Notes: generated by a model from the sequence alone, not told the origin. A stretch of 64,000 nt of DNA from Candidatus Micrarchaeota archaeon (GCA_027371545.1 DAHXMW010000003.1:9831-73830), one strand, 5' to 3'. Positions 1-40,533 are shown, counted from the stretch's first letter. Numbers and translations: made by a program.

Positions 1-988
1 GGTTTGAGAATGTGCTGCCGTAGCCGCCCAGACCAGAAGATGCAAGGCTTATGAAAGAGGAGTAAGGAAGCTGTGACCCCGCAAATGTCGTAACTCCTGC
101 AGGGGCGGAAGAGAATAGGCTTGCAACAGGGAGATTTGTCAGCTGCGGGGAGAGGACGTATGCAGGATACGGGTTGCATATACTTATTAGCGGAGTGCAT
201 GGGGTGTAAAGCCATGTCATTATGAATCCATTCATTATTATGGTAAGGGGAAATATGAAATAGAAGCTTATTGCTATGGCAATGAACGAGTTGGATGCCT
301 CCTTCAGCCTTGGGCCTGCAAAAGGTATAAACCTTATCAGTATAGCCACAGGGACTATCAAGGTAAGGGCTATTGACTGTAGGATGTCCAGAAAGAGCAG
401 CAGCACGTATAGTATCCCAAAAGTAACAACTATTATTCCTGCATAGGCTGTATTCAGTACACTGGAGAACGCGAAATATATGCCTATTACATCGTGCCCT
501 AGATCGAATCCGATGAAATTCTGGACGATTGTTATGGGAATTGATGTTATGAGGTCCATTATATTGGCTGCTATTACAAGATTTACAGACTCAGCATAGA
601 GCTCCGACCAGAGGGCAAGCGCTTTGGAGAAGAGCAGGTTCTGTATGGTGTATTCGGCATACTGCATTGGATTTGCATAGTTCACCGTAGCTCCAGAGAT
701 ATATGCACCCAAGTTGCATGAGAAGGCGGCAAGTCCGGTTATCCCAGCTATTATAAATAATGTAAGTATTATCTCTGCAGCTTCGTATCTCGATATGCCC
801 TTGAGCTTCTCCCTGTAAGTCACGGGAAGTATGTTTGCTATCGTATATATCAGGATGGTGAATATCATTGCGAACAGGGCAACCACACCGCTCACTGATA
901 TCCATCCGGTAACGTATTGCCCACCGAATGCGCAAGAATTAGCGTAGGGGGAGGCAGCTGCAAGTATCGGTGCGAGTAGCCATAGCAT
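1..988 (-). CDS. Multi-pass membrane protein, CedA/VirB6-like (3' end runs off the window)
   Basis: Not in the ORF track. Manual translation from ATG 988: MLWLLAPILAAASPYANSC...KLKGISRYEAAEIILTL...LIVPVAILIRFIPFAGPRLKEASNSFIAIAISFYFIFPLTIIMN. Paralogous in layout to 993-2210. Confidence 0.7.
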   Translation of the reverse strand, partial: MLWLLAPILAAASPYANSCAFGGQYVTGWISVSGVVALFAMIFTILIYTIANILPVTYREKLKGISRYEAAEIILTLFIIAGITGLAAFSCNLGAYISGATVNYANPMQYAEYTIQNLLFSKALALWSELYAESVNLVIAANIMDLITSIPITIVQNFIGFDLGHDVIGIYFAFSSVLNTAYAGIIVVTFGILYVLLLFLDILQSIALTLIVPVAILIRFIPFAGPRLKEASNSFIAIAISFYFIFPLTIIMNGFIMTWLYTPCTPLISICNPYPAYVLSPQLTNLPVASLFSSAPAGVTTFAGSQLPYSSFISLASSGLGGYGSTFSN

Positions 989-992
989 GCAA

Positions 993-2210
993 TCACGCGA
1001 GTTTTAGTTTGTGCCCAAGGCTGAGCCTGAGGGTTCCTCCTAGCGATCTGGCTATGCTGTCCACTATCGGATATAGTATCATTAGGTCAGCGGCAAATAT
1101 GAAGAACTGGAGTATCATGTAGAATCCATAATTAAGGATATAGTTATAGAAATAATACACGCCGTTGAATATATTTGCGCCTATTCCCGCATATTGCGCG
1201 AGGTTGACTATGGGCCCTATTGTAAGCTTGAAGATGTCATCTATTATCTGCGCGCCTGTATCAAGAAAGAACCCATTTCCGCTTGTAGGAAGTATGTTTC
1301 CAGATGATGGTCCTGGAGCGGGAGCCACGTAGACATATGGGGATATTGCTTGGGTAAGAGGATAGTTGAAGAGAACTAGGATTGCCGGGTATACTATTCC
1401 CGCGCCTATGCCTATCGCTATAAGAGTGCCGCCTATATTTCTAGAGAACGGGAACGCCCTGAAGACCAGTCCAAGCGGTATTATCATGGTCAGGCTGGCC
1501 TCTATTATCGAGTAAAGGTTGTACATTAGCCCTACCGTAAGAAGCGAGGTGGGGAATAATATGAACTTTATCATGTCGTTTAGCATGGATTCGTACTGTG
1601 CCAGTATGTGGTTTCCGCTCTCCAGAAGGTAGGTGGTATATATTGGGGTTACGGAGAATCCGGTTAAGAATGCGCCAACGAAAGGAATAGGTATAGGAAC
1701 GTACAGGCTTAGGCTGAGACCCTGATAAAGGCCTATTGCTATCCCAAGCGTGGATACACCATTCCATATATTCACAAGGTTTCCACATACGGTATTCAGG
1801 TACGTATAAGATTCTGAATAGAGCGTGCCGATGTTGTTCACGTAGGATGCAGAAGCGGCAGGAGAGCCCGGAACTATGAATAGAGCTATGCTGCTTATGA
1901 AGGTTATCGCCAGGTATATGCCTGCAATAAGCATAGCAGATTTGGCTATCTCCCAGTACTCGTTCTGCAGCCAGTTTCTTATCCCTGCAGCTGGAAATAT
2001 CTTGCTGAGCATATATCCTACCGCCACCACATCGAATGACAGGGAAAGCGCTAATAGGGATATTGATATTGCCGCGGATGGAAGTCCAGTAAGCGGTTTG
2101 GTCACCTCTGCGGGGCAGAATGTAGATGAAGCGGCAGAGGATACGCCTACAAATAGTGCCAATAGAAATGCGCTTAGCATAAGCGTACTCCTTTTACCAC
2201 GCATGCTCAT
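993..2210 (-). CDS. Multi-pass membrane protein, CedA/VirB6-like
   Basis: Signal peptide and several TM segments. Motif IIPLGLVFRAFPFSRNIGGTLIAIGIGAGIVYP resembles the crenarchaeal CedA C-terminal TM hairpin as I recall it. Confidence 0.65.
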   Translation of the reverse strand: MSMRGKRSTLMLSAFLLALFVGVSSAASSTFCPAEVTKPLTGLPSAAISISLLALSLSFDVVAVGYMLSKIFPAAGIRNWLQNEYWEIAKSAMLIAGIYLAITFISSIALFIVPGSPAASASYVNNIGTLYSESYTYLNTVCGNLVNIWNGVSTLGIAIGLYQGLSLSLYVPIPIPFVGAFLTGFSVTPIYTTYLLESGNHILAQYESMLNDMIKFILFPTSLLTVGLMYNLYSIIEASLTMIIPLGLVFRAFPFSRNIGGTLIAIGIGAGIVYPAILVLFNYPLTQAISPYVYVAPAPGPSSGNILPTSGNGFFLDTGAQIIDDIFKLTIGPIVNLAQYAGIGANIFNGVYYFYNYILNYGFYMILQFFIFAADLMILYPIVDSIARSLGGTLRLSLGHKLKLA

Positions 2211-2253
2211 ATATGGATTGCTTGTTTTATAAGGTTTATCTCATGCTAGAGGC

Positions 2254-2982
2254 TTAATGCCTCAGCAATGGGAAACGCCTTATATACGCTTCTGCGATAA
2301 ATATGACAAAATAAGGTAGTATGAATACGGAATTTACAACCAGCGTAACGTAGCTTCCTATTACGCCAAGCGTGCTGGAGAAGGCCAGGTCTGCAGCTGA
2401 AGTTGCAACAGCAAAGAGCACAAGCCACAGAACCACGTACTTTGGTGATGTCACCACAAGCCTTATGCTCCCTTTGAGCGAAGCAAAGAATTTCTTGTTG
2501 TCTATCACCATTGCTGTAGGCATATAGAATATCAGCAGGAATACAATAAGGTTTAACGCCTCCGTCCATATGACCGGGAAGGAGAATAGGTATGAGGAAA
2601 TGCTCAGTATTATTACAATGAATGCGTAGAAAAGGAGGACCGTGAATACGCGGCTTATGTACTTCTCTATCTCCAGCATCACCCTCTTGCTCGTCGCCAT
2701 GTGTGTCTTTTCCGACTTTACGATCAGGCTTATGGCCACGAAGGCAAAGCTTATGAAGAGCATAGATACGAAAGTTGATATCGTAACTACGGCCAATACG
2801 GTAGGGTTTGTATTGACGAATATGCTCGCAGTCCTCAGGAATATTGCCCCCGTACTTATATACGTAGGCAACGGCGCGAGCAGAGGTATAAGGAATGCTA
2901 TCAGGAAAGGTATTGAGAAGAGAAGTATGAGGCGTATGTTGTCCCTGTATATCCCGAACGAGTCGGAAACCACGTTTGCCAT
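2254..2982 (-). CDS. Integral membrane protein, about 6 TM, unknown function
   Basis: 242-aa hydrophobic ORF, co-oriented with neighbours with short gaps. Confidence 0.75.
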   Translation of the reverse strand: MANVVSDSFGIYRDNIRLILLFSIPFLIAFLIPLLAPLPTYISTGAIFLRTASIFVNTNPTVLAVVTISTFVSMLFISFAFVAISLIVKSEKTHMATSKRVMLEIEKYISRVFTVLLFYAFIVIILSISSYLFSFPVIWTEALNLIVFLLIFYMPTAMVIDNKKFFASLKGSIRLVVTSPKYVVLWLVLFAVATSAADLAFSSTLGVIGSYVTLVVNSVFILPYFVIFIAEAYIRRFPLLRH

Positions 2983-3005
2983 TTTATCTCTCTTCGGATA
3001 TAGAT

Positions 3006-4913
3006 TCAGCTAAAATTATATATTTCTTTGGATATGTATACGTCACTTGAATTGTATATGTATGCTGACGCAACATAGATTTTTGACTGCGATGTTATAG
3101 TTGCATTTATGCGCATTGTCCCGGAGCCGCTGCCTAGTTTTATCAGATTTGGATTCACCGCGCACGGATAACCCGTGCAGTTTAGCGCATTTGGCAGTAT
3201 CCTGTCTCCCGCAAGGCCGTATATTATTGGCTTAGAGAGAAGGGAATTCGACTCCGCCTCTGTGGAAACAAGAAGATAAATACTTCTCGGAGCCGTGGTG
3301 CGGTAGTTTAAATCAAATGAATACGTTGTGGCATTGCCTTTCCTTATAAGCACTTGGTTTGTTATGTTTACGCTGAAGCTTGATGAATATGCGGAGTGTA
3401 AGGCGATAGGCAGAACGATGAGGAGAAGCATAATAAACGCCGTCAGATACACGGCAATGCGCACCTGTGGGGAGCTGCTGCGCACGTGGCTGCGCGGTTT
3501 GGCATAACTGGCTTTTTCGTATGAGAGTATTGCAACTACGGTAAAGAGGCCAAATGTCGCGAAGTAAGTTGCAGATGAACGATCCATTAGGAGAAATGGG
3601 ATCATGCTAAGGACAGGTATTAGGGCTTTGTCCCTTGCAGTTAGAAGGATGGAAACGGAGAGGAGTATGCCGAGTATGAATAAAGGAGTGTAAGAGGGCA
3701 GGCTTATCGGATAGTAGTAAGCCATGGAGTAGCCTATGAGTGCATAAGAGTCAGGAAATATGCCTCCGCTTACAGGATCCAACACTGCATGAAGGAAAAC
3801 TGATGGCGATATGAGTATGAAATACGAATTTGTTATAAGGAATACTGCTATGGTTCCTGCGAGTGCAATTCCTCCGCGCTTTTTTCCGTATTTTATGAAA
3901 GAGTATGTTATAAGGAGAAGCACAGGTATCCAGAGCTCCTCCTGGAGAGATGCCGCAAGACCCAGGAGCACCCATGACCATCTCCATCCTATTTTTGCAT
4001 ATGAGAGTATTATAAGAGCAAGCATGAGTGAGGTGGTTGGAGAGGCAACAGTAAGTGTTCCAAGGCTGAGGAATACGATTAGCCATGGAATTGGCCTTGC
4101 CAGTGCCCTTTCCCTAAGGACATAAGCAACAACAAGCAATAGCAACCCGACAAATACCATTGACTGCACTTGCAGGTCTATGGTGAATATATTGTTTAGT
4201 GTAGGCTCTGAGATGAAATAAAACGGGATTGAGGATATTAAGTAAAAGGCAGGATAGTTAAGGATTCCTATTATGGTGTTGCTTGCCGTAAATGTTATGT
4301 CAGCTTTGTGGCTAAGTGAGAATAGGAGTGGGGATATCGAATAGGAATATGGATTGAGACCATGCAGGGTTGCATTTATAGCGTAGAAATCTATCAGAGG
4401 TTCATCGGTAAGCGTGAATCTGGTTATTACAATCCCGTAATATGCTGCCAGTATCAAAATGAATATTACAGAGGCAGCGGCGATTATGGCAATCTCATTC
4501 CTGCTGTGCCCTTTTTTCACGGATAGCTTGACTATAGCTACGGCACAGATGAACAGTGGTAGTATGACGATTGCCTGGAGAGTATAGACGTATGTAATTG
4601 ATACAAGATTTATTGCGTAGAATGCAGCCAGCTTTACATTCCCAAATTCCGGGTTCGAGAAAAATAGAATTATAGATATAGCACATAGCGCATACTCCAG
4701 CTTCCGCCTAGATGGCGCCGATTTGTAATGTAGGTGCTTATTGCTTATGTATAGTATGGCGTATGAGATGAAGACTAATGCATATATGGAAAGGAGGAAG
4801 GAAAACTCTCCGGTAAGGGAAGAGATAAATGTAAAAATAAATAAAAAAAGGGAAATGAAGAATCCATTTCCCTTGAAGTATGCCCAAACCCTACTTAAAG
4901 GATGCTTGGACAC
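3006..4913 (-). CDS. Multi-pass membrane protein, probable GT-C (GT87-like) glycosyltransferase
   Basis: Many TMs; luminal loop TDE...LHGLNPYS...NYP typical of GT-C enzymes; C-terminal extracellular domain with N-X-S/T sites. Confidence 0.55.
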   Translation of the reverse strand: MSKHPLSRVWAYFKGNGFFISLFLFIFTFISSLTGEFSFLLSIYALVFISYAILYISNKHLHYKSAPSRRKLEYALCAISIILFFSNPEFGNVKLAAFYAINLVSITYVYTLQAIVILPLFICAVAIVKLSVKKGHSRNEIAIIAAASVIFILILAAYYGIVITRFTLTDEPLIDFYAINATLHGLNPYSYSISPLLFSLSHKADITFTASNTIIGILNYPAFYLISSIPFYFISEPTLNNIFTIDLQVQSMVFVGLLLLVVAYVLRERALARPIPWLIVFLSLGTLTVASPTTSLMLALIILSYAKIGWRWSWVLLGLAASLQEELWIPVLLLITYSFIKYGKKRGGIALAGTIAVFLITNSYFILISPSVFLHAVLDPVSGGIFPDSYALIGYSMAYYYPISLPSYTPLFILGILLSVSILLTARDKALIPVLSMIPFLLMDRSSATYFATFGLFTVVAILSYEKASYAKPRSHVRSSSPQVRIAVYLTAFIMLLLIVLPIALHSAYSSSFSVNITNQVLIRKGNATTYSFDLNYRTTAPRSIYLLVSTEAESNSLLSKPIIYGLAGDRILPNALNCTGYPCAVNPNLIKLGSGSGTMRINATITSQSKIYVASAYIYNSSDVYISKEIYNFS

Positions 4914-4938
4914 TTAAGCACTGATGGTTGTTGCCTTA

Positions 4939-5337
4939 TCAGCAGCTTGCAGGTAGCGTTATTGAGCCTCCGCCAGCTCCAGCTGTTCCGGAGAATCCTA
5001 CTACCATGTTGACAATGAATGGAGCTATTATTACGAGCACCAGCCCGATTACTCCTCCTACTATCATTGCCATAGACCATCCTTGTGCTCCTGCCCTTAC
5101 GTTTCCAGCTGCAGGCAACAGATGCGCTACCGCATAGATGGCACCGCCAGCTATGAAGAGAGCTATAGCCAATACACCTACGACAGTTCGTATTGTATTT
5201 ACTATGCCGCATATCTGTGAAGTTACTCCTGTAACTCCCGTTGCTGCTGATGCTATTATACTGGAAAATCCAAGAACCACTAATGCCATATACACTAGGT
5301 TCGTGAACTTCGATATGTTCATACAATCAACACGCAT
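4939..5337 (-). CDS. TrbC/VirB2-like pilin
   Basis: Signal peptide, then two hydrophobic helices joined by a short loop (AGNVRAGAQGW); Gly-rich tail ending in Cys. Alternative start at ATG 5322. Confidence 0.65.
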   Translation of the reverse strand: MRVDCMNISKFTNLVYMALVVLGFSSIIASAATGVTGVTSQICGIVNTIRTVVGVLAIALFIAGGAIYAVAHLLPAAGNVRAGAQGWSMAMIVGGVIGLVLVIIAPFIVNMVVGFSGTAGAGGGSITLPASC

Positions 5338-5350
5338 ATATTGCGTTGGT

Positions 5351-5374
5351 TATTTATAAGCTTTGCGCTTTTTT
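5351..5374 (-). promoter_or_regulatory. BRE/TATA-like promoter of the pilin gene
   Basis: Minus strand reads AAAAAAGCGCAAAGCTTATAAATA just upstream of the start codons. Confidence 0.45.
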
Positions 5375-5402
5375 GGGCTGCTATTATTAAATATTCCACC
5401 CA

Positions 5403-6437
5403 TTAGCCAAGCTTTTCCTTGAGGAAAGCGGCCGTGAGGTTCTCTATCTGCGGGATGGAGGGAGTTATAGGATTAGGACCTACTCGGGAAAAGCTATGAC
5501 CAGAATTATTGACTATGACCAGTGTCGCATTATCCCCATGTTCCGTGAGCGAGTTATATAATAAATATGACTGGTATGGCGGCACTGTGGTATCCTTATT
5601 GCCCTGGAATATCAGAAATGGAGGCTCGTTTGCCCCTATGTAGTTTATTGGGCTGGCAATCCCGAGCAGCGTGTAGTTTCCCATGAATACCTCGTTCAGA
5701 TCCTGCTGCCTGTACTCGTTTATCTGCGCGCTCGTGGAGTTGTGGTACTCATACCAGGTAAGGTTGCTTGGGCCGAAGTTATCCACTACAGCCTCCACCT
5801 TGCTAGAGTAGTTCGCATATGGGCCGCTAGACCATAGGCTACTGTTTGAAGTGAAGGCAAGAAGCTGCACGAGCTGGCCTCCAGCACTGCTTCCCACTAC
5901 TCCTATCTCATTAGGATTTATATTATATCTCGCTGCGTTCGCCCTGAAGTATCTTACGGCGCACTTGAGGTCTATTATCTGTGCGGGAAATGGATACTGC
6001 GGCGCAAGCCTGTAATTTATCGCTGCTACTACAAAATTATCCCTCAGTAGTGCAGGAACTATGAAATAGCTGTTTGCAGGAAGGGATGAGCCGTTTGCAA
6101 CGTATTTTTCCATCTGGGCGTAGGTTGCGTTGAACGCTGATCCTGCGTGCCAGCCGCCTCCGTGCACGACTATCACCAATGGCAACGTTTTGTTCCCGCT
6201 TGATGGTGGAAGGTATATGTATGCAGTATCTGAGCTGTTTCCGGATGGATTGCCAAACGGGCAGTAGCTTGCCTCAACCATCTGCGGACCGTAGAGTGTT
6301 CCATTTTTAGGCTGCTCCTCTGCCGAACTTGCTTTAGTATGGATATTGACTGCCACGTATGAGGCAAGTATTATGGTGATTGCGATTATTATGAATGCAG
6401 CAATAGTGCCATTATTTAATCTCTTATGCTGCTGCAT
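5403..6437 (-). CDS. Membrane-anchored/secreted alpha/beta hydrolase (HSL-family esterase)
   Basis: HGGGW oxyanion motif, GSSAGG nucleophile, D..VP and GH catalytic motifs, N-terminal TM. Start refined to ATG 6437 (MQQHK). Confidence 0.9.
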   Translation of the reverse strand: MQQHKRLNNGTIAAFIIIAITIILASYVAVNIHTKASSAEEQPKNGTLYGPQMVEASYCPFGNPSGNSSDTAYIYLPPSSGNKTLPLVIVVHGGGWHAGSAFNATYAQMEKYVANGSSLPANSYFIVPALLRDNFVVAAINYRLAPQYPFPAQIIDLKCAVRYFRANAARYNINPNEIGVVGSSAGGQLVQLLAFTSNSSLWSSGPYANYSSKVEAVVDNFGPSNLTWYEYHNSTSAQINEYRQQDLNEVFMGNYTLLGIASPINYIGANEPPFLIFQGNKDTTVPPYQSYLLYNSLTEHGDNATLVIVNNSGHSFSRVGPNPITPSIPQIENLTAAFLKEKLG

Positions 6438-6562
6438 TATTCCCTCCTTGAACCGCAAGTGCAGCCGCAATCGCAGCCATTCTTGCATACGCATCCCGAT
6501 GAGCATCCGCAGAGGCATCTTCCTCCGCACTCGCATCCGGCACCAGCGCCCTGATTTGCCAT
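6437..6562 (-). CDS. Metallothionein-like Cys-rich peptide (41 aa)
   Basis: MANQGAGAGCECGGRCLCGCSSGCVCKNGCDCGCTCGSRRE*: 11 Cys in CxC/CxCxC motifs. The stop overlaps the next ATG (TAATG). Confidence 0.75.
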   Translation of the reverse strand: MANQGAGAGCECGGRCLCGCSSGCVCKNGCDCGCTCGSRRE

Positions 6563-6647
6563 ATTATTACCATGTAATTTGCCGCAAGTGCTGCTTTAGC
6601 ACTGCGGTTATTATTAATGGGTCGCTTGGATTTATATTTGGTTGCGT

Positions 6648-7097
6648 ATGGTTTCCACCGCAAATGCTATTGCAATTGCCGTTTTTGTTTCAGTGCTTGT
6701 AGTGGCAATTTCTTATTATATCTTTATGAGCCTTGGAAGTCGTGGAACCGGAGAGGATTTTTCTTACGCGCACGTCAGCATTGGCAGCAGCGGAATCAAC
6801 GGAACATACTGGATAGCCAATACGATGCAGGAGGAAAAGTATGGGTATATGAATGCATCTTCCCCTGAAGTCTTAGGCAACGGAGAGAGATGCGATATTT
6901 GCAATGGAATGCTCTTTGAATTCGGATACAATCAGGGAATATGCATGTGGATGAAGAATACTAAAATGCAGCTCGTGATCAGATGGTTCTACCTTAACGG
7001 CAGCTTGTCCTATGAGCGCATAGGGATACCATATAACACAACACCGTACTGCGCATATTCCGCGTATGTTCTAGAGACAGAAGTACAAGGAGCATGA
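6648..7097 (+). CDS. DUF192-family membrane-anchored protein
   Basis: N-terminal TM; GMLFEF...MWMKNT...YVLE signature. Confidence 0.75.
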   Translation: MVSTANAIAIAVFVSVLVVAISYYIFMSLGSRGTGEDFSYAHVSIGSSGINGTYWIANTMQEEKYGYMNASSPEVLGNGERCDICNGMLFEFGYNQGICMWMKNTKMQLVIRWFYLNGSLSYERIGIPYNTTPYCAYSAYVLETEVQGA

Positions 7098-7098
7098 C

Positions 7099-8685
7099 TT
7101 ATTTTAGTTCAGGGTGAAAATCCATGCCATATATGCCATCTATATTTAATACACGTGCCTTTCCTTTCCTGCCCTTCATCACTATGGTGTAGAATGGGAG
7201 CGCTGCTTCCTTTGACCACATGACCCTGGCCCCTGGAAATAGCGAGACAGCCATCTTCTCCATGTATCTTGAACCGCCCTTTATGCGGTAGTAAGTAGAA
7301 TGCGCGTCGGATGCGTCCTCTATGCTGCGCACGTCTTCCGGTATAGACAGTGCATGAGTTACTACTGGTACGTAATGCTTGCCTTCAAGCTTTACTTGCC
7401 CTTTCTTTTCAAGCCTTTTCAGGATTGCTGATGAGCTTATCGCATCCATCTTAAGTTTCTTTGATATGGTTTCCGGAGTCGTGCGCCCGCTTTCCTGTGT
7501 TTCTTCAAGCGCTTTTATCTCGTCATCTGCGAGTCTTGCGCTCTTTACGCGCACTCCCTCAACCTGCTGGTTTGGATTGATTCTGAAGGCGAAGCCGTCG
7601 CCCATGAGGATTGTGCTGTCTTCATATTCGCCTCGCTTCTTTGAAGGTATGAGTATCCTCATCATATACGCATCTATGTAGCCTGGGCTTACAGACTCTA
7701 TCTCCTCCGTCTCGCTGCCGAAGAGCATGAATTCCTTCCTTGATTTTTTCTTGGCTATGGATCTTGCATCTTCCTCTGTTATGCGTCGTGCCAGTGAAGG
7801 CAGATGCATTGTGCGCTTCCCGGTTGCTTTTTGCTTCTGCAATGGCGTGGTTTCTGCATTCTTGCCTGCTCCTCGTATGTCTTTTAGGAGTTCCTCGATA
7901 GAAACATCCTTCTTTCCGTAAGTCTGGGAGAGCGATGGCGTACTTCCAGAATGCACAACTTCCCTGCGCTTCACCTTAAGGACCGTTTCTTCGGTTCCTT
8001 CTACACCGAAAGGAAGGAAGCTTCCAGTCTGCAGCCTCGGGAGCATATCCAGCTGCTCCTGCCTGCTGAAGAGTATCCTTATAGCCTGTACATCATTCTC
8101 GATGCTCAGCTTTCCTATGAATCCATAGGAGCATTGGGCCAGGACATTCTTGCTTATATTTGCAGGCCTCTGCGTAGCAACTAGAAGCCCTATGCCGCGC
8201 TTCCTTCCCCGTACGCTTATCTCTTCTATCATATTCTTCCTCTGCCTTACAATCTGCGGCGCAAACTTGTCGGCTTCCTCGATTATCACGAGAAACGGGC
8301 GCTTCGTGCCCTCTTCCATAGAGTACAGTTCGGATAGGGCAGACTGGACGCTCGCGTCCTTGTCCATGGTATCGGAGAGATCGTATATTATAGGTATCCC
8401 GTATTTCATGCTCTCGGAAAGGATCGCGCCCAAGCGCTCTGAAGATTTTATGTCAGCTGCAGGGTTGGCCTCTGATACCCATATCGCATTGAATTTTGAT
8501 TTTATTGATGCATACTCGCCTTCTGTGTCTATAACCATGAAGGGAAGACCGAGTTTGCAGAGCTCTTCGACTATTACTCCAACGAGGTATGACTTTCCTG
8601 AGCCACTCTGCCCTATCACGCATCCCCTTCCCGTCATTACCTGCTGCGCGTCTATGTTGAAATCTTCCGAGAGGTTTATCTGCAT
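7099..8685 (-). CDS. HerA/FtsK-superfamily (DUF87) ATPase with C-terminal winged-helix-like region
   Basis: Walker A GQSGSGKS, IDTEGEY, Walker B IIEEADKF, GRKRG...ATQRPA. Confidence 0.85.
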   Translation of the reverse strand: MQINLSEDFNIDAQQVMTGRGCVIGQSGSGKSYLVGVIVEELCKLGLPFMVIDTEGEYASIKSKFNAIWVSEANPAADIKSSERLGAILSESMKYGIPIIYDLSDTMDKDASVQSALSELYSMEEGTKRPFLVIIEEADKFAPQIVRQRKNMIEEISVRGRKRGIGLLVATQRPANISKNVLAQCSYGFIGKLSIENDVQAIRILFSRQEQLDMLPRLQTGSFLPFGVEGTEETVLKVKRREVVHSGSTPSLSQTYGKKDVSIEELLKDIRGAGKNAETTPLQKQKATGKRTMHLPSLARRITEEDARSIAKKKSRKEFMLFGSETEEIESVSPGYIDAYMMRILIPSKKRGEYEDSTILMGDGFAFRINPNQQVEGVRVKSARLADDEIKALEETQESGRTTPETISKKLKMDAISSSAILKRLEKKGQVKLEGKHYVPVVTHALSIPEDVRSIEDASDAHSTYYRIKGGSRYMEKMAVSLFPGARVMWSKEAALPFYTIVMKGRKGKARVLNIDGIYGMDFHPELK

Positions 8686-29880: not shown

Positions 29881-30031
29881 CCAACAACCCCAGATTTTCG
29901 ATTATGTATGATTTAGATAAATATTTAAATATATACCAATTTACAAGAAAGGCGCATTAAGTCTATAGTAACCATTCCGAAATGCAGATTTGTAATTGCT
30001 TATAGACTTGTATGAGTGCTTACCAACTTAG

Positions 30032-30979
30032 TCAGTTCGTTTCTGCTTTTCGGTAAAGGATCTGGAGAAGCTGCACGGCAACTTCAGGCTTTGCCTCGCC
30101 ACAGCCGGGGCAGTATATGGATTCGTTTGGGACGTTCAGCCAGTAGCCTCCTGAGAAGTTATCAGTTGCGTTTATTGCAGCGTACAGTTCTCCGCCAGTT
30201 ATATTCTCCGAGTTCGGGTTGGTGCTTATCCCTATGAAGAATATGGCATTGGGATTTCCAGCTTTTGCCTGGAGATATTCCTCATGCGAGAATGATGCAA
30301 ATTTGGAAGTGTTGCTCTCCAGGCTCTGCGCCTGGAGCTCATACACCTGCGAGTACATTGATGTGTTGTATGCTATCCCCAGCCTCTGGAACACTCCTGA
30401 GAAATTGCTGCGGTATCCGTACGCCTTTGCCAGGTCAAGCGCAGGTGTGGATATTAACACAAGTCCTTGAGGCTCAGCGAGCCTGCTTGATAGCATTGTA
30501 TAATAGGTGGTATTCAGCTGCTCGTACAATGGGGTGAAGCTCCAGTTCTCCTGGTCCAGTATTATTCCGTAATATACATTGGAGCTTAATGAGGATATTG
30601 ACCTGTTCAGCGCGCTGTAGTTATGGAAATCGGCAACTCTCCTTGATGTCCATCCTGCAGGCGGATTTCCGATTATCAGTGTGTTTGGGTTGTCAAATGC
30701 CCATCTTGCCAGCGTGGCGTTCTGCGCAATTATCTTGTTTACAGCGCCTGAAGAGATTACCCATCTGAATGGATATGGAAATGCATTATTTGGTGCGCTT
30801 GAATTAATTGAAATTGTAGTTGAGCTTGGAGGCATTGTAGATATTGTTGTAGGTTGAGTGGCGGGATACGGTGTCGTATTGTTTGGGTTTCCGCTTTGGC
30901 TTGTGAAGTTTGTCTTCAATACAACTAGCATTATGATAAACAGTATTATCAGAACAGCAACGAAGCGGATTACTGCCAT
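30032..30979 (-). CDS. Membrane-anchored secreted protein, possible glycoside-hydrolase-like TIM barrel
   Basis: N-terminal TM, P/T/S linker, ILDQENW motif, alternating beta/alpha pattern. Confidence 0.55.
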   Translation of the reverse strand: MAVIRFVAVLIILFIIMLVVLKTNFTSQSGNPNNTTPYPATQPTTISTMPPSSTTISINSSAPNNAFPYPFRWVISSGAVNKIIAQNATLARWAFDNPNTLIIGNPPAGWTSRRVADFHNYSALNRSISSLSSNVYYGIILDQENWSFTPLYEQLNTTYYTMLSSRLAEPQGLVLISTPALDLAKAYGYRSNFSGVFQRLGIAYNTSMYSQVYELQAQSLESNTSKFASFSHEEYLQAKAGNPNAIFFIGISTNPNSENITGGELYAAINATDNFSGGYWLNVPNESIYCPGCGEAKPEVAVQLLQILYRKAETN

Positions 30980-31057
30980 TACATCACTTTGGCTATATTA
31001 TTAAATTGGTTTATTATATAATATTGGTTAGTTATAGGCTGGGAGCACTGTTTTCTA

Positions 31058-32263
31058 TTGAGCAATGCTGATAATATGAATCGTCGTCATCAGTATGTTG
31101 GAGTTGGAGGGCTGGAACTAACTGCGCAAGACAAGAGGATGGTAAACAAGGTTCTTGACAGCAATAGGCTCTCATACGGCCCGTTTACCAAAAAATTTGA
31201 ATCAGAATTTGCAAGGATCCATCAATCTAAATTTGGTGTATTTACCAACAGCGGAACTAGTGCGCTCCATATTGCATTGGGCGCACTTAAAGAAAGGTAT
31301 GGTTGGGGGGATGGGGATGAAGTAATAGTCCCTGCACTAACCTTTGTAGCAACTTCAAATACAGTAATATATAACAATCTAAAACCTGTTTTTGCTGATG
31401 TAGAACATGATACATTTAACATCGATCCTGCAAAGATAGAGGAAAAGATAACAGAAAGAACACGTTGCATATTGCCAGTCCATCTATTAGGGTTACCCGC
31501 CAGCATGGAACCAATAATGAAATTGGCCAAAAAGTACAATCTTAAGGTTATAGAGGATTCTGCAGAAACCATGTTTGCGAAATATATGGGCAGATCGGTT
31601 GGCTCTTTTGGTAGTATAGGGTGCTTCTCCACGTATATTGCACATTATATAGTTACCGGAGTTGGTGGACTGAATACAACAAATGATCCAAAACTCGCCG
31701 TTATGCTTAGAAGCTTGGCAAATCATGGAAGGGACTCTATTTACATAAACATTGATGATGATAACACAACCGACAAGAAAGCATTAAGAGAAATTATATC
31801 GAAGAGGTTTAGTTTTGTAAGGTTTGGGTACAGCTTTAGAGCTACAGAGCTTGAAGCGGCATTGGGTTTGTCGCAGTTATCCAGGAAGGAGCAGATAATA
31901 AGAAGCAGGATGAATAATGCTAAAAGATATCTGAACGGATTGAAGGATCTAAGCGATTATATATATTTTCAGCATACGCCCAGAGATAGGGAAAATATGT
32001 ATATGCTTTTTGGAGTTGTATGTAAAGGGAATTATAAGAACGACTTGGTTAATTTTCTTGAAGAGAGCAACATAGAAACTAGGGATCTCTTGCCTCTTCT
32101 TAACCAACCAATCTATAAGAAATATTTTGGCGATGTTGAGAAACATTATCCTGTTGCAAAAAGGCTTAGAGAAAATGGCTTTTATATAGGATGCCACCAG
32201 TATCTGAATAGAGCAGACATTGATTATGTAATAAGAAAATTCCATGAGTTTTTCAGAAGATAA
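31058..32263 (+). CDS. DegT/DnrJ/EryC1/StrS-family PLP enzyme, ColD-like sugar 3-dehydratase
   Basis: NSGTSALH, GDEVIVPALTF, PVHLLG, IEDSAE; STYIAHYIVTGVGG has His at the usual Schiff-base Lys position. Confidence 0.85.
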   Translation: MSNADNMNRRHQYVGVGGLELTAQDKRMVNKVLDSNRLSYGPFTKKFESEFARIHQSKFGVFTNSGTSALHIALGALKERYGWGDGDEVIVPALTFVATSNTVIYNNLKPVFADVEHDTFNIDPAKIEEKITERTRCILPVHLLGLPASMEPIMKLAKKYNLKVIEDSAETMFAKYMGRSVGSFGSIGCFSTYIAHYIVTGVGGLNTTNDPKLAVMLRSLANHGRDSIYINIDDDNTTDKKALREIISKRFSFVRFGYSFRATELEAALGLSQLSRKEQIIRSRMNNAKRYLNGLKDLSDYIYFQHTPRDRENMYMLFGVVCKGNYKNDLVNFLEESNIETRDLLPLLNQPIYKKYFGDVEKHYPVAKRLRENGFYIGCHQYLNRADIDYVIRKFHEFFRR

Positions 32264-33572
32264 TGGTAATAATTTGGCAGGAAAGCTCGCTTTTATATGG
32301 TATGGGCCCGTTTATACCTTAGGCGGATACGGCTCTGTTTCTAGGTTATTTGTCTCAAATTTAGTTAAGTTGGGCTTCAAGGTTAAAGTGGTGAGTTATG
32401 GTGGCGGGGATAAAAGCAAACTTGATAAATCGATGGTTAAATTGCTCGAAGATTGCGAACATGAAAGTATACCAATAGGTTATACTAAGATCCTTGTTTT
32501 GCATCAGCTTCCGCATAATATTTATCCCTTAAGAGTTAAAGGCGTTGACTACTCTGTATTAATGACTATATTTGAGACTGATTCTATACCGAAAATTTGG
32601 GCGAGTATTTGCAATAAAAAAATGTTTGATGAGATATGGATACCGACCATGTTCAATTTTAAGACTTTTTCTAAAGCAGGTGTGGAAAAAAATAAACTGC
32701 GAATAGTTAATTATGGGTTAGAAAGCACTAATAAAAAGAGCGGTACTAGATATGTGAAAAAAGACGGACGCTTTAGATTTTTGTATATAGCAGATTTGAT
32801 ACCTAGAAAAAATATTCCTCTCCTCGTTGAGGCATTCGGAAAAGAGTTTGGTAGTAATCCTAATGTTGAGTTGTTTATACAATTAAGTTATTCGAATCAG
32901 GCAGCCCTTGATGAATTTATATCGAAATATAATAATTTGTTAAAGCATTCGAATATATTTATAGGGAAGGACCGATTAAACGAAGCAGAGATTGGTTATT
33001 TGATAGAGTCATCGGATGTTTATATATCTGTTGATAGGGCAAATGGTTGGGGCATGCCGTGTATGGAAGCTATGTCAAAAGGAATTTTATCAGCAACGAT
33101 TGATTGGAGCGGATCTACAGAGTTCATGAAAAAAGACAATAGCCTTCTTATAAAACCATCTAGGTTGGAACTAGTTGATTCTTATTCTGCTTCATTGAAC
33201 CCAATCTATTGCGGACAGAAATGGGCACATGTATCAGAAAATGATATTAGGAAAACACTTAGATATGCATATATGAATCGTGGGAAATTAGGTAAGTTAA
33301 GTAAAAAAGGTGCGGAAGATATGCAAACTAGATTTAATATGCAAGGTATACTTAACAGGTTAATTGAAGACCTTACTATTATGGGTATAGAAAATAAAAA
33401 TTCAGAGCTTTATATAAAATGCCCGCATGGTTTCACAGTATTATTTAACAAAATTAAGGTTGTTTTGAGATATAATGTTAATTATTTTATCATTTACCGC
33501 TCTCCGGAGTTGTTGCTTAAAGAATCTAGAACAGTTTTTAGAAGATTGAAGCTAATCTTAGTTAATAGGTAG
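32244..33572 (+). CDS. GT-B (GT4-like) glycosyltransferase
   Basis: GGYG..SR, TIFETD, RKN, GWGMPCMEAM. Confidence 0.85.
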   Translation: MSFSEDNGNNLAGKLAFIWYGPVYTLGGYGSVSRLFVSNLVKLGFKVKVVSYGGGDKSKLDKSMVKLLEDCEHESIPIGYTKILVLHQLPHNIYPLRVKGVDYSVLMTIFETDSIPKIWASICNKKMFDEIWIPTMFNFKTFSKAGVEKNKLRIVNYGLESTNKKSGTRYVKKDGRFRFLYIADLIPRKNIPLLVEAFGKEFGSNPNVELFIQLSYSNQAALDEFISKYNNLLKHSNIFIGKDRLNEAEIGYLIESSDVYISVDRANGWGMPCMEAMSKGILSATIDWSGSTEFMKKDNSLLIKPSRLELVDSYSASLNPIYCGQKWAHVSENDIRKTLRYAYMNRGKLGKLSKKGAEDMQTRFNMQGILNRLIEDLTIMGIENKNSELYIKCPHGFTVLFNKIKVVLRYNVNYFIIYRSPELLLKESRTVFRRLKLILVNR

Positions 33573-33682
33573 GTTCTATGTATTTTATGCAACAGTCTGT
33601 TAGGCGTCTTTGTTTGCTTTATTAAAGGAATCTAAGTCAGAAGAGATTAGCGCAGGTAATTTGGTATATCTGTATTTAAGTT

Positions 33683-34642
33683 TTAAGAAGAAACTTGTCT
33701 CTTCCAGTGATCTATTGTCTTTTTCAGGCCTTCTTCTAGTGAATTTCTAGGCTCCCAGCCGAGTAGACGCTTTGCCTTTGAGTAATCGCCTTTTAGCACA
33801 ACGGCATCGAGAGGCCGCTTCTGCGTTGCGTTCCATGCTATCTCACCTTTAAATCCGATTAGCTTCTTTATCTTCTCCGCAGTCTCCCTTGTTGAGTAGA
33901 AATTGCCAGTGCAGAGCTGTATGTCTTCGCCTATCGCCTTGGGGTTTGCAAGCGCTTTTATGTATCCATCAATATGGTCGTCTATATAGAGCCAATCGCG
34001 TATTGCGTTAGGGTCGCCGAGCTCTACGCGCTTCTTTGTCAGCATCTGGTAGATCACGCTCTCTATGAAGAAGTGCTTGTTGTCCTTTCTGCCATATGTA
34101 TTGAATGGTCTCAGTATTGTGAAGGGGAAATGGTATGCCTCGTACATGTAATTAAGGTAAAGGTCGGCAGCCACCTTGCTAACAGCATATGGGCTGTTTG
34201 GATGCAGCTCTGAATCTTCAGTAAGGGACTTCTTCTTATCGGTTATTGCCATACCGTATTCCTCGCTCGTGCCTGAGAATATAAACTGCTTGAAATGAGG
34301 CACCTCCCTGTAGCATGCCTCAGCTAGATTTATAGTGCCAAGGTAATTTACCTCTCCAACTTCTATGAAGTGCTCGTACGAGAAAGAAACGGGGCTTATT
34401 GCAGCAGTATGTATCACGTATTCGGGCTTTATGTCTTTGACTATGTTCTTTACAGTTGGAAAATCAGTAAGGTTGGCGTAGTGCCTTACAACATTAGTGC
34501 TGTTTTGGAGGGAGTACCTCCCGGTTACATATCGCTCAAGCGTATGTACCTGGTATCTTTTGCCTTTGCTGAGCCTCTCTACCAGTTCCCTTCCTACAAA
34601 GCCCGTAGAGCCCGTGATTAGCACTCTATCCATTGAATTCAC
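33683..34642 (-). CDS. NDP-sugar 4,6-dehydratase (GDP-mannose dehydratase-like SDR)
   Basis: ITGSTGFVG, GTSEEYG, SPYAVSK, RPFNTYG, RDW. Confidence 0.88.
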   Translation of the reverse strand: MNSMDRVLITGSTGFVGRELVERLSKGKRYQVHTLERYVTGRYSLQNSTNVVRHYANLTDFPTVKNIVKDIKPEYVIHTAAISPVSFSYEHFIEVGEVNYLGTINLAEACYREVPHFKQFIFSGTSEEYGMAITDKKKSLTEDSELHPNSPYAVSKVAADLYLNYMYEAYHFPFTILRPFNTYGRKDNKHFFIESVIYQMLTKKRVELGDPNAIRDWLYIDDHIDGYIKALANPKAIGEDIQLCTGNFYSTRETAEKIKKLIGFKGEIAWNATQKRPLDAVVLKGDYSKAKRLLGWEPRNSLEEGLKKTIDHWKRQVSS

Positions 34643-34649
34643 TTGTTAG

Positions 34650-35717
34650 CTATTTGAGCATCTTTTTATAAATACCTAATGTCTCTCTTGCAGTCTTTTC
34701 CCATGTGAAGCTGCGCGCATACGCCATTGCCTCTTTGCGCTTCTTTTCGTTGTATCCGTTCTCCTTTAGATTCTCTATTATCTGTGCAGCATGCTCTGGA
34801 TTCTCTGCCTCTATGCAGTGTTTCCGAACCTCTTTGGAGATGTGCGCTTTCTTGTAGATTATAACTGGAAGCCCCCTTGACTGTGCTTCCAGTATCGGCA
34901 ATCCAAAGCCTTCGTGGAAGCTTGGGAAGATAAACGCGTCAAATGAGTCGTATGTTTTTATCTTCTCTTTTTCTGGCGCAAAGCCGCAGATCCTCATATT
35001 CGAGAGATTGTTGGAGGTTATGTAATCCCTTATTATGCCTTCTTCTAATCCTTTCCCATATATACTAAAGGTTATGTCTCTCTCTTGCCCAATCTTGCTT
35101 GCCGTTTTCGCGATAAACATTACATTTTTATGGTGTGCAAATGACCCTATGTATCCTACCTCGAACTTTGAGCTGGGCTTTTTTGGGACCTTTTTCTTGG
35201 AAATGAACTCTGCGCTCACTCCATCGTTTATAACCGCACAGTCCCTTATCTTGCCAAAGTGCTTTTCTGCATCTTTTTTGACTATTGATGATATAAATAC
35301 AAGGAAATCGGAGTTCTCGACTGCTTCTGTTGTGTTATTCTTTACTAATTCATTGTATAAGTTCTGCATTGCACCCGTATGCGTGGATGGGTCAAATCTT
35401 GAGAGGTCATTTATGGTAGAGACTATTCTTCCATGAAATTTGCCCTTTAATATTCGTGCGGCGAATCCTATCTCTTGGTTAAGTATATGCATGATGTTGC
35501 TGTCTCCCTTTGCCATGCTTGCTATCTTCATTCTGAAAATTGTCTGCGTATAGATTACTCCAAAAATATCATCTTTCTTCGCTTCTTGGAGTGCGTACCT
35601 GCTGCTTACTCTAACCCCTTGCTCTGGCAGAAGCTTCTCAAGCCTGTATGCGTATTCTGTCATGCCGTCTCCGCTTCCTTGGTAAGGCTTTACTGCAGAT
35701 AGTATAGTCACGTCCAT
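34650..35717 (-). CDS. GT4 glycosyltransferase
   Basis: HKN, FPSFHEGFGLPILEAQSRGLPV, FTWEKTA. Confidence 0.92.
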   Translation of the reverse strand: MDVTILSAVKPYQGSGDGMTEYAYRLEKLLPEQGVRVSSRYALQEAKKDDIFGVIYTQTIFRMKIASMAKGDSNIMHILNQEIGFAARILKGKFHGRIVSTINDLSRFDPSTHTGAMQNLYNELVKNNTTEAVENSDFLVFISSIVKKDAEKHFGKIRDCAVINDGVSAEFISKKKVPKKPSSKFEVGYIGSFAHHKNVMFIAKTASKIGQERDITFSIYGKGLEEGIIRDYITSNNLSNMRICGFAPEKEKIKTYDSFDAFIFPSFHEGFGLPILEAQSRGLPVIIYKKAHISKEVRKHCIEAENPEHAAQIIENLKENGYNEKKRKEAMAYARSFTWEKTARETLGIYKKMLK

Positions 35718-35766
35718 TGAAATCCAGTATGGGGAATAAATTTATTGATAATAGATTAGGCAACAG

Positions 35767-36759
35767 TTAAACTTTTGCAAAACGATATATATTCTTGGAG
35801 AACCAATCAAATGTTGCACTTATTCCGTCTTCAAGTGTAAATGATGGTGACCAGTGCAAATCACTTCGCGTCTTGCTGTTATCCATGTCAAAATTTATCG
35901 GTTCGCCATTTATAAGTTCACCAGGCTCGTAGTTTGCCTCCTCAATATCTAGTGGTTTGAAACCTTTATCTCTTGCAACTTTGTTTATAATACTGGCGAG
36001 TTCCACATTAGTTACAATCCTGTCCCCTTTATTTCCGGCGCAGCTGAGCACCGCCCCATTGAAGTCTTCCACTCTATAGATAAGCTCTTTGTAGAAAGAG
36101 AGGAAGTCTGCAGCATACGACCATAGCCTTTTTGCTTTTGGCGAGCGCATCTTGAATTTCTTTTCTCTTCGTATAGTTTTGATTATATAATTGCCTATAA
36201 GTTCATCTGAACGCATTCTGGGCCCATATCCACTACCAACAACTACTATAACAACAGGTACACCAAACGATTTGTTGTATGTGAGATAAAGCGTTTCGGC
36301 TGCACTTTTTGTCCATCCGTAAGGAGTGGATGGAAGCGGAAACGTAGCTTCATTTAATAGGCTATTAACTTTGTGGCCATATCGAGCATTTAGTGAGGAT
36401 GGGTATATTATTGTTGGCTTCGTTTTCATCTTCCTTACAGTTTCAAGCAGGTATATTGGTGGGAGCAGGTTCCCGATTAAAGAATGAATTGGCGAGTTTG
36501 TACCCATCGGCCTATCAGGCACAGCAAGGCCACAGTCTATAACAATGTCAATGTCTTTAAGGTCGCTTTCGCTTATGTCTGTTGTGGATTTCCATATGTA
36601 TTCTACTTTGTCTTTTACGCCGGCATCTTCTAATTTCCAGGCCTCATCTGATCTGATTATGTCTAAAACTGAAACGTTATTGTGCTCCTTAACAAGTATT
36701 GAAGAAAGACCAGACCCTAGTGTTCCTGCACCTCCACATATCAGTATATTTTTGGACAT
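35767..36759 (-). CDS. NAD-dependent epimerase/dehydratase/reductase (extended SDR)
   Basis: GGAGTLG, SS...YG, PYGWTK, YGP. Confidence 0.85.
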   Translation of the reverse strand: MSKNILICGGAGTLGSGLSSILVKEHNNVSVLDIIRSDEAWKLEDAGVKDKVEYIWKSTTDISESDLKDIDIVIDCGLAVPDRPMGTNSPIHSLIGNLLPPIYLLETVRKMKTKPTIIYPSSLNARYGHKVNSLLNEATFPLPSTPYGWTKSAAETLYLTYNKSFGVPVVIVVVGSGYGPRMRSDELIGNYIIKTIRREKKFKMRSPKAKRLWSYAADFLSFYKELIYRVEDFNGAVLSCAGNKGDRIVTNVELASIINKVARDKGFKPLDIEEANYEPGELINGEPINFDMDNSKTRSDLHWSPSFTLEDGISATFDWFSKNIYRFAKV

Positions 36760-37151
36760 TTAATCCTTTTTGATAATATTGTATTAGATATTTAAGCACT
36801 TTTAGGTAAGTATTTATAAGTTTTCCTTTATTTTTGGGGTTTATTTTATTTATGGGAGATTCATTGCAATCAGGCTGCATTTTTGTCATTTAGATTGCGC
36901 ATTAAACTAGAAATAATTTTGTCTATGTAAAGAGCACTTGTTTTTAGTAACTACAAATGATTAGTGGCAAGATAAGCAGACATTTGATTAAACGGGTGGG
37001 TAAAGTGAGGTTGCTGAAGCATGAAGATCAAAATATATACTTTTGTTAATAGCAGGGTTAAGTTATACTATATTAGAATACGCCATGGGAGCGAATGCTT
37101 ATTTATTATTAATTGTCACTTTATGTTCTGTTAGGTACAAAGGTGTTTAGG

Positions 37152-38201: not shown

Positions 38202-38225
38202 GGAAATGACTTTTGTGGTTTTGGA

Positions 38226-40499: not shown

Positions 40500-40533
40500 G
40501 TAGTTCCGAAGCGCATGCGAGATTAGCATTCGC

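Follow-up and report, generated by a model that had tools for sequence, protein, structure and literature searches.

We analyzed a 64,000-nucleotide stretch of DNA from Candidatus Micrarchaeota archaeon (GCA_027371545.1, DAHXMW010000003.1:9831–73830; hereafter the window), which represents positions 9831–73830 of contig C28 in an 858-kb, 30-contig assembly that is 74% complete. The window cuts through a gene cluster of ~25 kb that probably encodes an apparatus resembling a type IV secretion system (T4SS). It holds the upstream third of this cluster, the remainder lying past window position 1 and onto a second contig, C5. The start of C28 (in reverse complement) and the start of C5 share an identical overlap of 141 nt, and a contig of a related metagenome-assembled genome, with 86–87% nucleotide identity, spans the C28/C5 joint without a break; on these two grounds the cluster continues from C28 into C5. 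The cluster genes are co-directional and tightly packed, and the gene for topoisomerase VI B (TopoVI-B) adjoins them in convergent orientation. In order of transcription, with the assignments discussed below, the genes are:

Window 4939–5337, minus strand: VirB2/TrbC-like pilin precursor, 132 aa, start probably at 5322
Window 3006–4913, minus strand: polytopic membrane protein, 635 aa, with ~10 hydrophobic segments and a C-terminal part predicted to be extracellular (hydropathy)
Window 2254–2982, minus strand: polytopic membrane protein, 242 aa, family unassigned
Window 993–2210, minus strand: putative VirB6-like paralog 1, 405 aa, with signal peptide, Cys and ~6 transmembrane (TM) helices
Window 2–988, minus strand (full gene C28:9643–10818): putative VirB6-like paralog 2, the N-terminal 329 of 391 aa in the window
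C28:8082–9641: putative VirB6-like paralog 3, 519 aa
C28:6883–8085: putative VirB6-like paralog 4, 400 aa
C28:5846–6886: putative VirB6-like paralog 5, 346 aa
C28:4745–5845: putative VirB6-like paralog 6, 366 aa
C28:1496–4637: two-gene insert (511-aa coiled-coil protein; 507-aa Lys-rich TM protein, opposite strand)
C28:521–1363: first protein with two TM helices, N-terminal, and a putative VirB4 N-domain (VirB4N-like), 280 aa
C28:1–510 joined to C5:1–465: second protein with two TM helices and a putative VirB4N-like domain, 277 aa
C5:503–2005: VirB4/CedB-like ATPase, 500 aa
C5:2016–2315: small protein, 99 aa
C5:2320–2745: small protein, 141 aa, with a zinc ribbon and two TM helices
C5:2764–3498: small protein, 244 aa, with a coiled coil and a weak winged-helix match
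C5:3678–6047: bitopic surface protein, 789 aa

An earlier note on the window (the original prediction) had proposed a Ced/VirB-like transfer apparatus encoded by four open reading frames (ORFs). These lie at 2–988, 993–2210, 4939–5337 and 7099–8685; all four are real and on the minus strand, the first running off the window. The note's suggestion to look beyond position 1 proved decisive, since it is there that paralogs 3–6, the two VirB3/VirB4N-like proteins and the VirB4-like ATPase are encoded.

The two CedA/VirB6-like paralogs of the original prediction thus turned out to be members of a tandem array of six, arranged head to tail with spacings of −4 to +4 nt, four of them past window position 1. 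The common layout that had been noticed in the first two is borne out by their alignment at 21% identity, in which the R and P residues of the motif R..P..R..GG...A.........P are invariant. The other paralogs are 20–24% identical to paralog 1 and share this motif, which in paralog 1 reads P.G...RA.P..R..GG...A.........P. Across 55 family members E84, E87, P245, G247, R251, A252, P254, R257, G260, G261, A265 and P275 are near-invariant. The family was seen only in records named Micrarchaeota or "Marsarchaeota", where its members are always annotated as hypothetical and lack a Pfam domain. A profile search of a representative library (E≤0.001) collected 2966 clusters at 50% identity, and the best 150 of these were all close relatives, offering no bridge to named families.

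We modeled paralog 1 with AlphaFold2 (AF2) from a 55-sequence alignment, obtaining a predicted local distance difference test score (pLDDT) of 81.1 and a predicted template modeling score of 0.74. Among 48,161 PDB representative chains, TrwI/VirB6 of R388 ranked first against this model (Z 7.4, root-mean-square deviation [rmsd] 6.6, 242 of 261 residues); in a second look the top three matches were all TrwI (Z 8.7, 8.4 and 8.1), followed by a designed repeat protein at 6.7. Considering also that the paralogs are polytopic membrane proteins by hydropathy and are encoded alongside VirB4-like and VirB2-like genes, we regard them as candidate VirB6 counterparts, an assignment made at the level of fold and gene context. 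The VirB6 half of the CedA/VirB6 proposal therefore stands as a fold-level match, whereas similarity to TrbL or TrwI sequence profiles was not found. The sole lead to the CedA/CedA1 families was an Atlas cluster of 293-aa Microcaldota proteins, 23% with a CedA1 domain (feature score 0.87).

The size of the array is itself conserved. Six tandem copies were found in seven of nine relatives' regions; G042 also has six, one copy being split by the locus boundary, and four to five were found in G033. In a tree of 54 paralogs, each array position formed its own clade (support 100 in the Shimodaira–Hasegawa-like approximate likelihood ratio test) across two taxonomic families represented by five genomes, and position 5 formed a single clade across all eight genomes (support 92). 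The position labels required 10 changes on this tree, compared to a mean of 37 when they were shuffled. These position-specific clades and the label test show that the six-fold array is old and fixed. Many genomes of other families in the class (f3, f4, f5, f8 and others) have two strong ATPase matches together with 11–14 paralog matches, a pattern that suggests two expanded systems per genome; these matches are not copy numbers, and at most 12 candidates were scored.

Downstream of the array, the 280-aa and 277-aa proteins are paralogous, each consisting of two TM helices and a soluble domain. For structural searches we turned to the orthologue of the 277-aa protein in G038, modeled with AF2 (pLDDT 75). 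The top seven Foldseek matches were all R388 TrwK/VirB4 (E 0.017–0.069, probability 0.85–0.98), and in a search independent of Foldseek TrwK/VirB4 again ranked first of 48,161 (Z 9.1, rmsd 4.0, 166 residues, model positions 67–271), the remaining rows aligning only a coiled-coil stretch of ~55 residues. We read these two proteins as VirB3-like anchors fused to the VirB4 N-domain, so that VirB4 would be split here. This assignment draws on fold and gene context; sequence profiles gave no similarity, and hhalign against single R388 proteins gave no signal. Likewise, comparison of the paralogs, the pilin and the VirB4N-like proteins with the PDB by sequence yielded nothing meaningful.

The ATPase encoded next to them scores above the Pfam cut-offs for AAA_10 (52.6 bits; cut-off 27.5), P-loop_TraG (43.2 bits; cut-off 25.8) and DUF87 (56.1 bits), and its best NCBIfam matches are CedD, CedB, VirB4-like CD1110 and TraC. 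Its longest PDB alignment pairs residues 59–326 with the VirB4 C-domain 4ag5 (E 9e-9). By tblastn it matched 2525 plasmids, of which 2193 are conjugative, on TraC or VirB4-like genes at 24–29% identity. The protein has no N-terminal VirB4 domain, the VirB4N-like fold being found on the two separate 2-TM proteins; complex prediction for the ATPase and the VirB4N-like domain, using the G038 pair, gave a score of 0.02. PADLOC did not discriminate among the four FtsK/HerA-type ATPases, all of which match its HerA, mad8 and DndH models alike. In one relative (G006, C2:186499–189627) the orthologous ATPase is a single frame of 1050 aa in which the parts matching profile residues 1–75 and 71–500 lie ~1.6 kb apart, the interruption falling just after the P-loop; it is probably an intein.

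At the upstream end of the cluster, the pilin precursor has a signal peptide ending in A-S-A, followed by a Cys, helix 1, the loop LPAAGN.R, helix 2 and a C-terminal Cys. Homologues begin with the second of its Met residues (MNISK), so that translation probably starts at 5322. The original description of a two-helix VirB2-like pilin holds as regards the signal peptide and the two-helix hydrophobic hairpin, both evident from sequence and alignment, and its VirB2 likeness is expressed in Pfam matches below cut-off: TrbC/VirB2 (PF04956) at E 0.0015 and 19.1 bits (cut-off 27.9) and T4SS_pilin (PF18895) at E 0.02. Of 10 members of the pilin family, six matched TrbC (best E 3.8e-5) and three T4SS_pilin; among 10 further pilins from relatives' clusters, seven matched at least one of the two at E≤0.1, with 22.9 bits as the highest score. 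The two Cys residues, one before helix 1 and the other C-terminal, are invariant in 10 of 10 aligned pilins. TrbC/VirB2 pilins undergo cyclisation, and we infer that a disulfide between the Cys pair joins both ends of the protein in a functionally similar manner. A kinship between pilin and paralogs of the CedA/CedA1 sort was considered but found no support: the pilin and the paralog N-terminus are in register (LPAAGN.R and FPAAGIR), but the hhalign probability was 0.9%. Extended pilins occur in two relatives: G100 encodes a 280-aa pilin paralog (L016:18450–19292), in which a Cys- and Ser/Thr-rich N-terminal extension of ~190 aa precedes the two-helix domain, and G038 encodes a similar protein of 184 aa.

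The same four families occur a second time in this genome, in an operon on the minus strand at C28:93744–96916 (L108:7745–10917), ~72 kb away and outside the window. Its genes encode:

Pilin-like protein, 117 aa (TrbC, E 8.5e-4)
VirB6-like paralog, putative, 346 aa
VirB4N-like protein, putative, 239 aa
ATPase, 339 aa (DUF87; TrwB_AAD_bind at 44.9 bits, cut-off 20.5)

These four genes were found in the same order in all six genomes examined, and the VirB6-like members of this minimal module form a separate clade (support 100). Their neighbors are a HerA_C-like ATPase of 726 aa, archaeal Nre, a ParA/MinD-family gene and a nickel superoxide dismutase. Among the evidence from gene context, this recurrence of four families in two kinds of operon speaks most strongly for their products working together.

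We then surveyed 151 Micrarchaeota genomes (ATPase threshold E≤1e-60). The array was present in 135 and the ATPase in 134, both together in 134; these counts include the unpublished G029, without which they become 134 and 133 of 150. The two have an identical family pattern (0 of 5 genomes in f9; 2 of 8, the same two genomes, in f10; none in f14, f16, f17 and f19), and their presence differs only in G145, which is 89% complete. As the relatives are not independent, this co-occurrence represents a few joint gains or losses and should not be counted as 134 separate tests. Relatives with complete or large sequences match the cluster gene for gene in their order, with one or two pilin copies and with the 635-aa gene in the same family only. 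We also collected 80 ATPase loci, all from Micrarchaeota records and with 67–99% identity, and counted neighbors where the flank was at least 9.5 kb (56 loci upstream, 53 downstream). Upstream, each VirB4N-like gene was present in 53 loci, paralogs 3–6 in 49, paralog 2 in 48 and paralog 1, which lies near the flank edge, in 41. Downstream, the 99-aa and 141-aa genes were present in 52 loci, the 244-aa and 789-aa genes in 46 and TopoVI-B in 41. Co-occurrence and synteny across Micrarchaeota, which the original prediction had named as a check, are thus strong.

This distribution bears on whether the locus might be an integrated conjugative plasmid or an integrative and conjugative element, whose T4SS would serve its own transfer. 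The lack of a relaxase is weak evidence here, because recognizable relaxases are absent from archaeal conjugative elements (available text of PMC12857230), and the variable two-gene insert within the cluster would suit a mobile element. Against this, the cluster spans the class and keeps its TopoVI-B neighbor; the ATPase is 57–81% identical across families, and the position-specific clades fit vertical descent. Scans of the cluster ORFs turned up no integrase, relaxase or coupling protein, the sole tRNA in the window lies 19 kb from the cluster, and the GC content is not deviant. A mobile origin of this kind is therefore highly improbable, and the cluster is chromosomal and non-mobile, as the original prediction had surmised for its T4SS/Ced-Ted-like apparatus, and probably vertically inherited. 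The insert at C28:1496–4637, between paralog 6 and the first VirB4N-like gene, is lineage-specific: of the 80 loci compared, 1 matched its 511-aa gene and 8 its 507-aa Lys-rich gene, and in L028, the contig most closely related, divergent sequence takes the place of the insert.

The remaining gene of the original prediction, at 7099–8685, lies beyond the pilin and was said to be separated from it by three unrelated genes; there are two. This neighborhood comprises:

Window 5403–6536, minus strand: BD-FAE esterase, between the pilin and the HerA-like gene
Window 6642–7097, plus strand: DUF192 protein, between the pilin and the HerA-like gene
Window 7099–8685, minus strand: DUF87/HerA ATPase, 528 aa, with a C-terminal winged helix

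In that prediction the HerA/DUF87 protein was the CedB-like motor of a Ced-like set, together with two CedA-like paralogs and the pilin. Its identity as a DUF87/HerA-like ATPase was upheld (E 2.9e-12), and several observations would agree with such a role: the gene lies on the same strand 1.8 kb upstream of the pilin, its product has a weak CedD match (E 6.7e-12), HerA homologues are frequent in Ted loci (available text of PMC9905601), and a HerA-like gene also stands beside the pilin on the co-binned variant contig C10. Its membership in the cluster was not upheld. The gene was matched in 0 of 80 related loci and in none of nine 40-kb regions from relatives; of five complete relatives, only two were found to have it, 370–440 kb from the cluster, so that it is unlinked or not found in all five, and a dedicated VirB4-like ATPase is encoded inside the cluster. 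We consider it very unlikely that this gene supplies the motor, and take it to be a bystander outside the machine. Nor are the genes for the esterase and the DUF192 protein conserved beside the cluster.

Contig C10 (26 kb) begins at the pilin gene and is syntenic with window 4896–29946 at 77–89% identity (82% over the main stretch of 17.9 kb). A second HerA-like copy on C10 was rejected as a true duplicate, C10 being a co-binned variant of C28:14726–39776 with 82–89% identity; it suggests that the bin mixes strains or species, and the HerA-like gene only looks duplicated. The esterase at 5403–6536 is a BD-FAE/alpha-beta-hydrolase with an N-terminal TM helix and a weak match to an archaeal type IV pilin N-terminus (E 0.021), and is probably secreted or surface-anchored. 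Farther into the window, positions 30000–40500 have a GC content of 36–42%, compared to ~47% elsewhere, and encode a DegT aminotransferase, two GT1 glycosyltransferases and two NAD-dependent sugar epimerases/dehydratases; this region looks like a surface-glycan island.

Some cluster products lack assignments. The 635-aa and 242-aa proteins had no Pfam, NCBIfam or PDB sequence match, and an Atlas search with the 789-aa protein returned no usable match. An orthologue of the 242-aa protein, always between the pilin and paralog 1, was present in six of nine relatives' regions (G038, G042, G016, G100, G108 and G103). Orthologues of the 635-aa protein were found only in two complete genomes of the same family, G038 and G042, and this protein is a family-level accessory.

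Since the ATPase, the VirB4N-like protein, paralog 1 and the pilin each point to T4SS parts, we conclude that the cluster probably encodes an expanded T4SS-like apparatus, passed on vertically in Micrarchaeota and akin both to conjugation machinery and to the Ced and Ted systems of Crenarchaeota. A number of observations weigh against this conclusion. Neither structural model had a Foldseek match at E≤0.001 (E 0.86 for paralog 1), and Z-scores of 7.4–9.1 lie within the range that, as the search tool warns, helical proteins can reach by chance. None of the six paralogs matched TrbL/VirB6 (PF04610), the two in the window had no match in Pfam or NCBIfam, and a PDB profile search was empty; across the 151 genomes PF04610 gave no match over its cut-off, and its 15 weak matches fell mostly off the array. 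An hhalign comparison of the paralogs with a TrwI profile, a shallow one whose 27 members are all at least 50% identical, gave a probability of 0.3%, and the pilin compared to R388 TrwL gave 2%. No pilin, from the window or from the relatives, exceeded a Pfam cut-off. The best PDB E-values of the cluster ATPase belong to HerA helicases, over ~100 residues, and its scores are far under the equivalog cut-offs for CedD (72.5 bits; cut-off 600), CedB (62.3; 700) and VirB4_CagE (34; 643), so that the membership in the Ced family implied by the original prediction was not borne out. The array and the ATPase are both present but at separate loci in four of nine relatives examined (G042, G033, G093 and G136). 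The DNA sequencing runs that carry the sequence are mine-drainage and tailings metagenomes, and no RNA run was listed among the runs carrying it.

The absence of profile similarity to TrbL/VirB6 or to solved pilins, the fold scores inside the stated noise range and the HerA matches of the ATPase are what would be expected if the cluster encoded a lineage-specific complex that merely resembles a T4SS, in which a HerA/FtsK-type ATPase assembles an adhesive filament or envelope structure and the paralogs, unrelated to VirB6, carry no cargo. However, three independent components have their best matches among T4SS parts (the VirB4 N-domain, VirB6 and a VirB4/TraC-type ATPase), the pilin repeatedly matches T4SS pilin families only, and the four-gene minimal operon resembles Ted in composition, with its pilin, VirB6-like and VirB4-like proteins (available text of PMC9905601). 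We therefore consider such a look-alike unlikely.

If the cluster encodes a T4SS-like machine, its working, beyond the parts listed, may be pictured by analogy with R388, Ced/Ted and Patescibacteria. The two VirB3/VirB4N-like proteins would hold a hexamer of the ATPase at the membrane, and this hexamer would energize the extraction and polymerization of the Sec-exported pilin. It would also drive cargo through a channel made up of the six VirB6-like proteins, perhaps each in a single copy, while the pilus and the large surface protein would extend through the S-layer to a wall-less host. As to the cargo, DNA is our first guess, holding somewhat less than half of the weight of this explanation, and host-derived or effector macromolecules come next; the preference is weak. 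What favors DNA is that Ced and Ted import it and that a Micrarchaeon and its host have been reported to exchange genes (available text of PMC5498576). More tentatively, and with less than even confidence, Micrarchaeota might possess two conjugation-derived machines: a minimal Ted-like one, and an expanded one whose hetero-hexameric VirB6-like channel would match a six-fold split VirB4 motor and serve as a conduit for DNA or macromolecules from Thermoplasmatales hosts. In that event the expanded machine would represent the long-sought conduit from the hosts, with a place in symbiosis as central as the one reported for the T4SS in Patescibacteria.

The cluster provides a concrete and testable candidate for the means by which DPANN archaea acquire what they are unable to make: a near-universal, strongly conserved T4SS-like machine in Micrarchaeota that may be a route of exchange with their hosts. 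We found no description of the cluster in the DPANN and Micrarchaeota literature on secretion and conjugation searched, a search of article text that did not extend to supplements. In its available text, the Mia14 Micrarchaeota genome paper lists no secretion systems other than Sec, Tat and type IV pili (PMC5498576), and a 2025 T4SS review treats, for archaea, only pNOB8 and pT33-3 (PMC12857230). Giant nanohaloarchaeal proteins with VirB4/TraG domains have been proposed to be T4SS-like (available text of PMC10266531). The architecture proposed here would be new for a T4SS, with six fixed VirB6-like paralogs, a VirB4 divided between a soluble ATPase and two N-domain proteins anchored in the membrane, and a second, minimal module elsewhere in the genome.

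Among known systems, the Trw T4SS of R388 (TrwI/VirB6, TrwK/VirB4, TrwM/VirB3 and TrwL/VirB2) provides the best structural matches for the paralog and VirB4N-like models. It differs in that no sequence-profile similarity connects the two, in the arrangement of VirB3 and both VirB4 domains, VirB4 being one chain in R388, and in having VirB5, VirB7–11, a coupling protein and a relaxase, none of which was found in the Micrarchaeota cluster. A tandem, diverged VirB6-like family in reduced-genome obligate symbionts is also known from the Rickettsiales T4SS, with four to five copies as opposed to the fixed six described here; four paralogs are reportedly the subject of a paper on Ehrlichia chaffeensis, as its title has it. 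The Rickettsiales system is that of a diderm bacterium, secretes effectors and has canonical VirB6 sequence domains.

Closer in parts is the Ted system of Thermoproteales, composed of the pilin TedC, the VirB6-like TedA and the VirB4-like TedB (PMC9905601). As far as the available text of that paper describes it, Ted is likewise a chromosomal, domesticated archaeal T4SS derivative with VirB6-like and VirB4-like partners and no relaxase, and TedC has a cleavable Sec-type signal like that of the pilin described here; the parts list of the minimal module is nearly that of Ted, and a HerA_C-like ATPase and a ParA/MinD gene stand beside it as in Ted loci (PMC9905601). The main cluster is set apart from this description by its six VirB6-like paralogs, its putatively split VirB4 (two N-domain proteins and a C-domain ATPase) and about seven further conserved genes.

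The Ced system of Sulfolobales consists of CedA, CedA1, CedA2 and CedB plus CedD and CedE (PMC11868833, PMC9905601). The best NCBIfam matches of the cluster ATPase are to two of its proteins, as noted above, and Ced too has paralogous channel proteins, CedA and CedE. According to the available text of the same papers, Ced has a pair of ATPases, each with an N-domain that matches a portion of the one in VirB4, which echoes the two VirB4N-like paralogs described here (PMC11868833, PMC9905601). Unlike in Ced, these N-domains are separate proteins without an ATPase domain, the pilin signal is cleaved, unlike that of CedA1, and the organism is a DPANN symbiont.

Finally, Patescibacteria (the Candidate Phyla Radiation) carry a chromosomal T4SS with VirB4, VirB3-like and VirB6 proteins and VirB2-like pilins, which has been reported to be essential for epibiotic growth (available text of PMC12102498). 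In both cases a T4SS or its likeness is kept in an ultrasmall, host-dependent cell with a reduced genome; relaxases are few in Patescibacteria, and one component has been amplified in tandem (PMC12102498). Their system is bacterial, is recognized by standard T4SS profiles and has an unsplit VirB4, and the amplified component is the pilin, in arrays of 2–11, not VirB6 as proposed here (PMC12102498). A T4SS-like machine in Micrarchaeota would extend this parallel between host-dependent bacteria and archaea, in the former of which a chromosomal T4SS is needed for epibiotic growth (PMC12102498).

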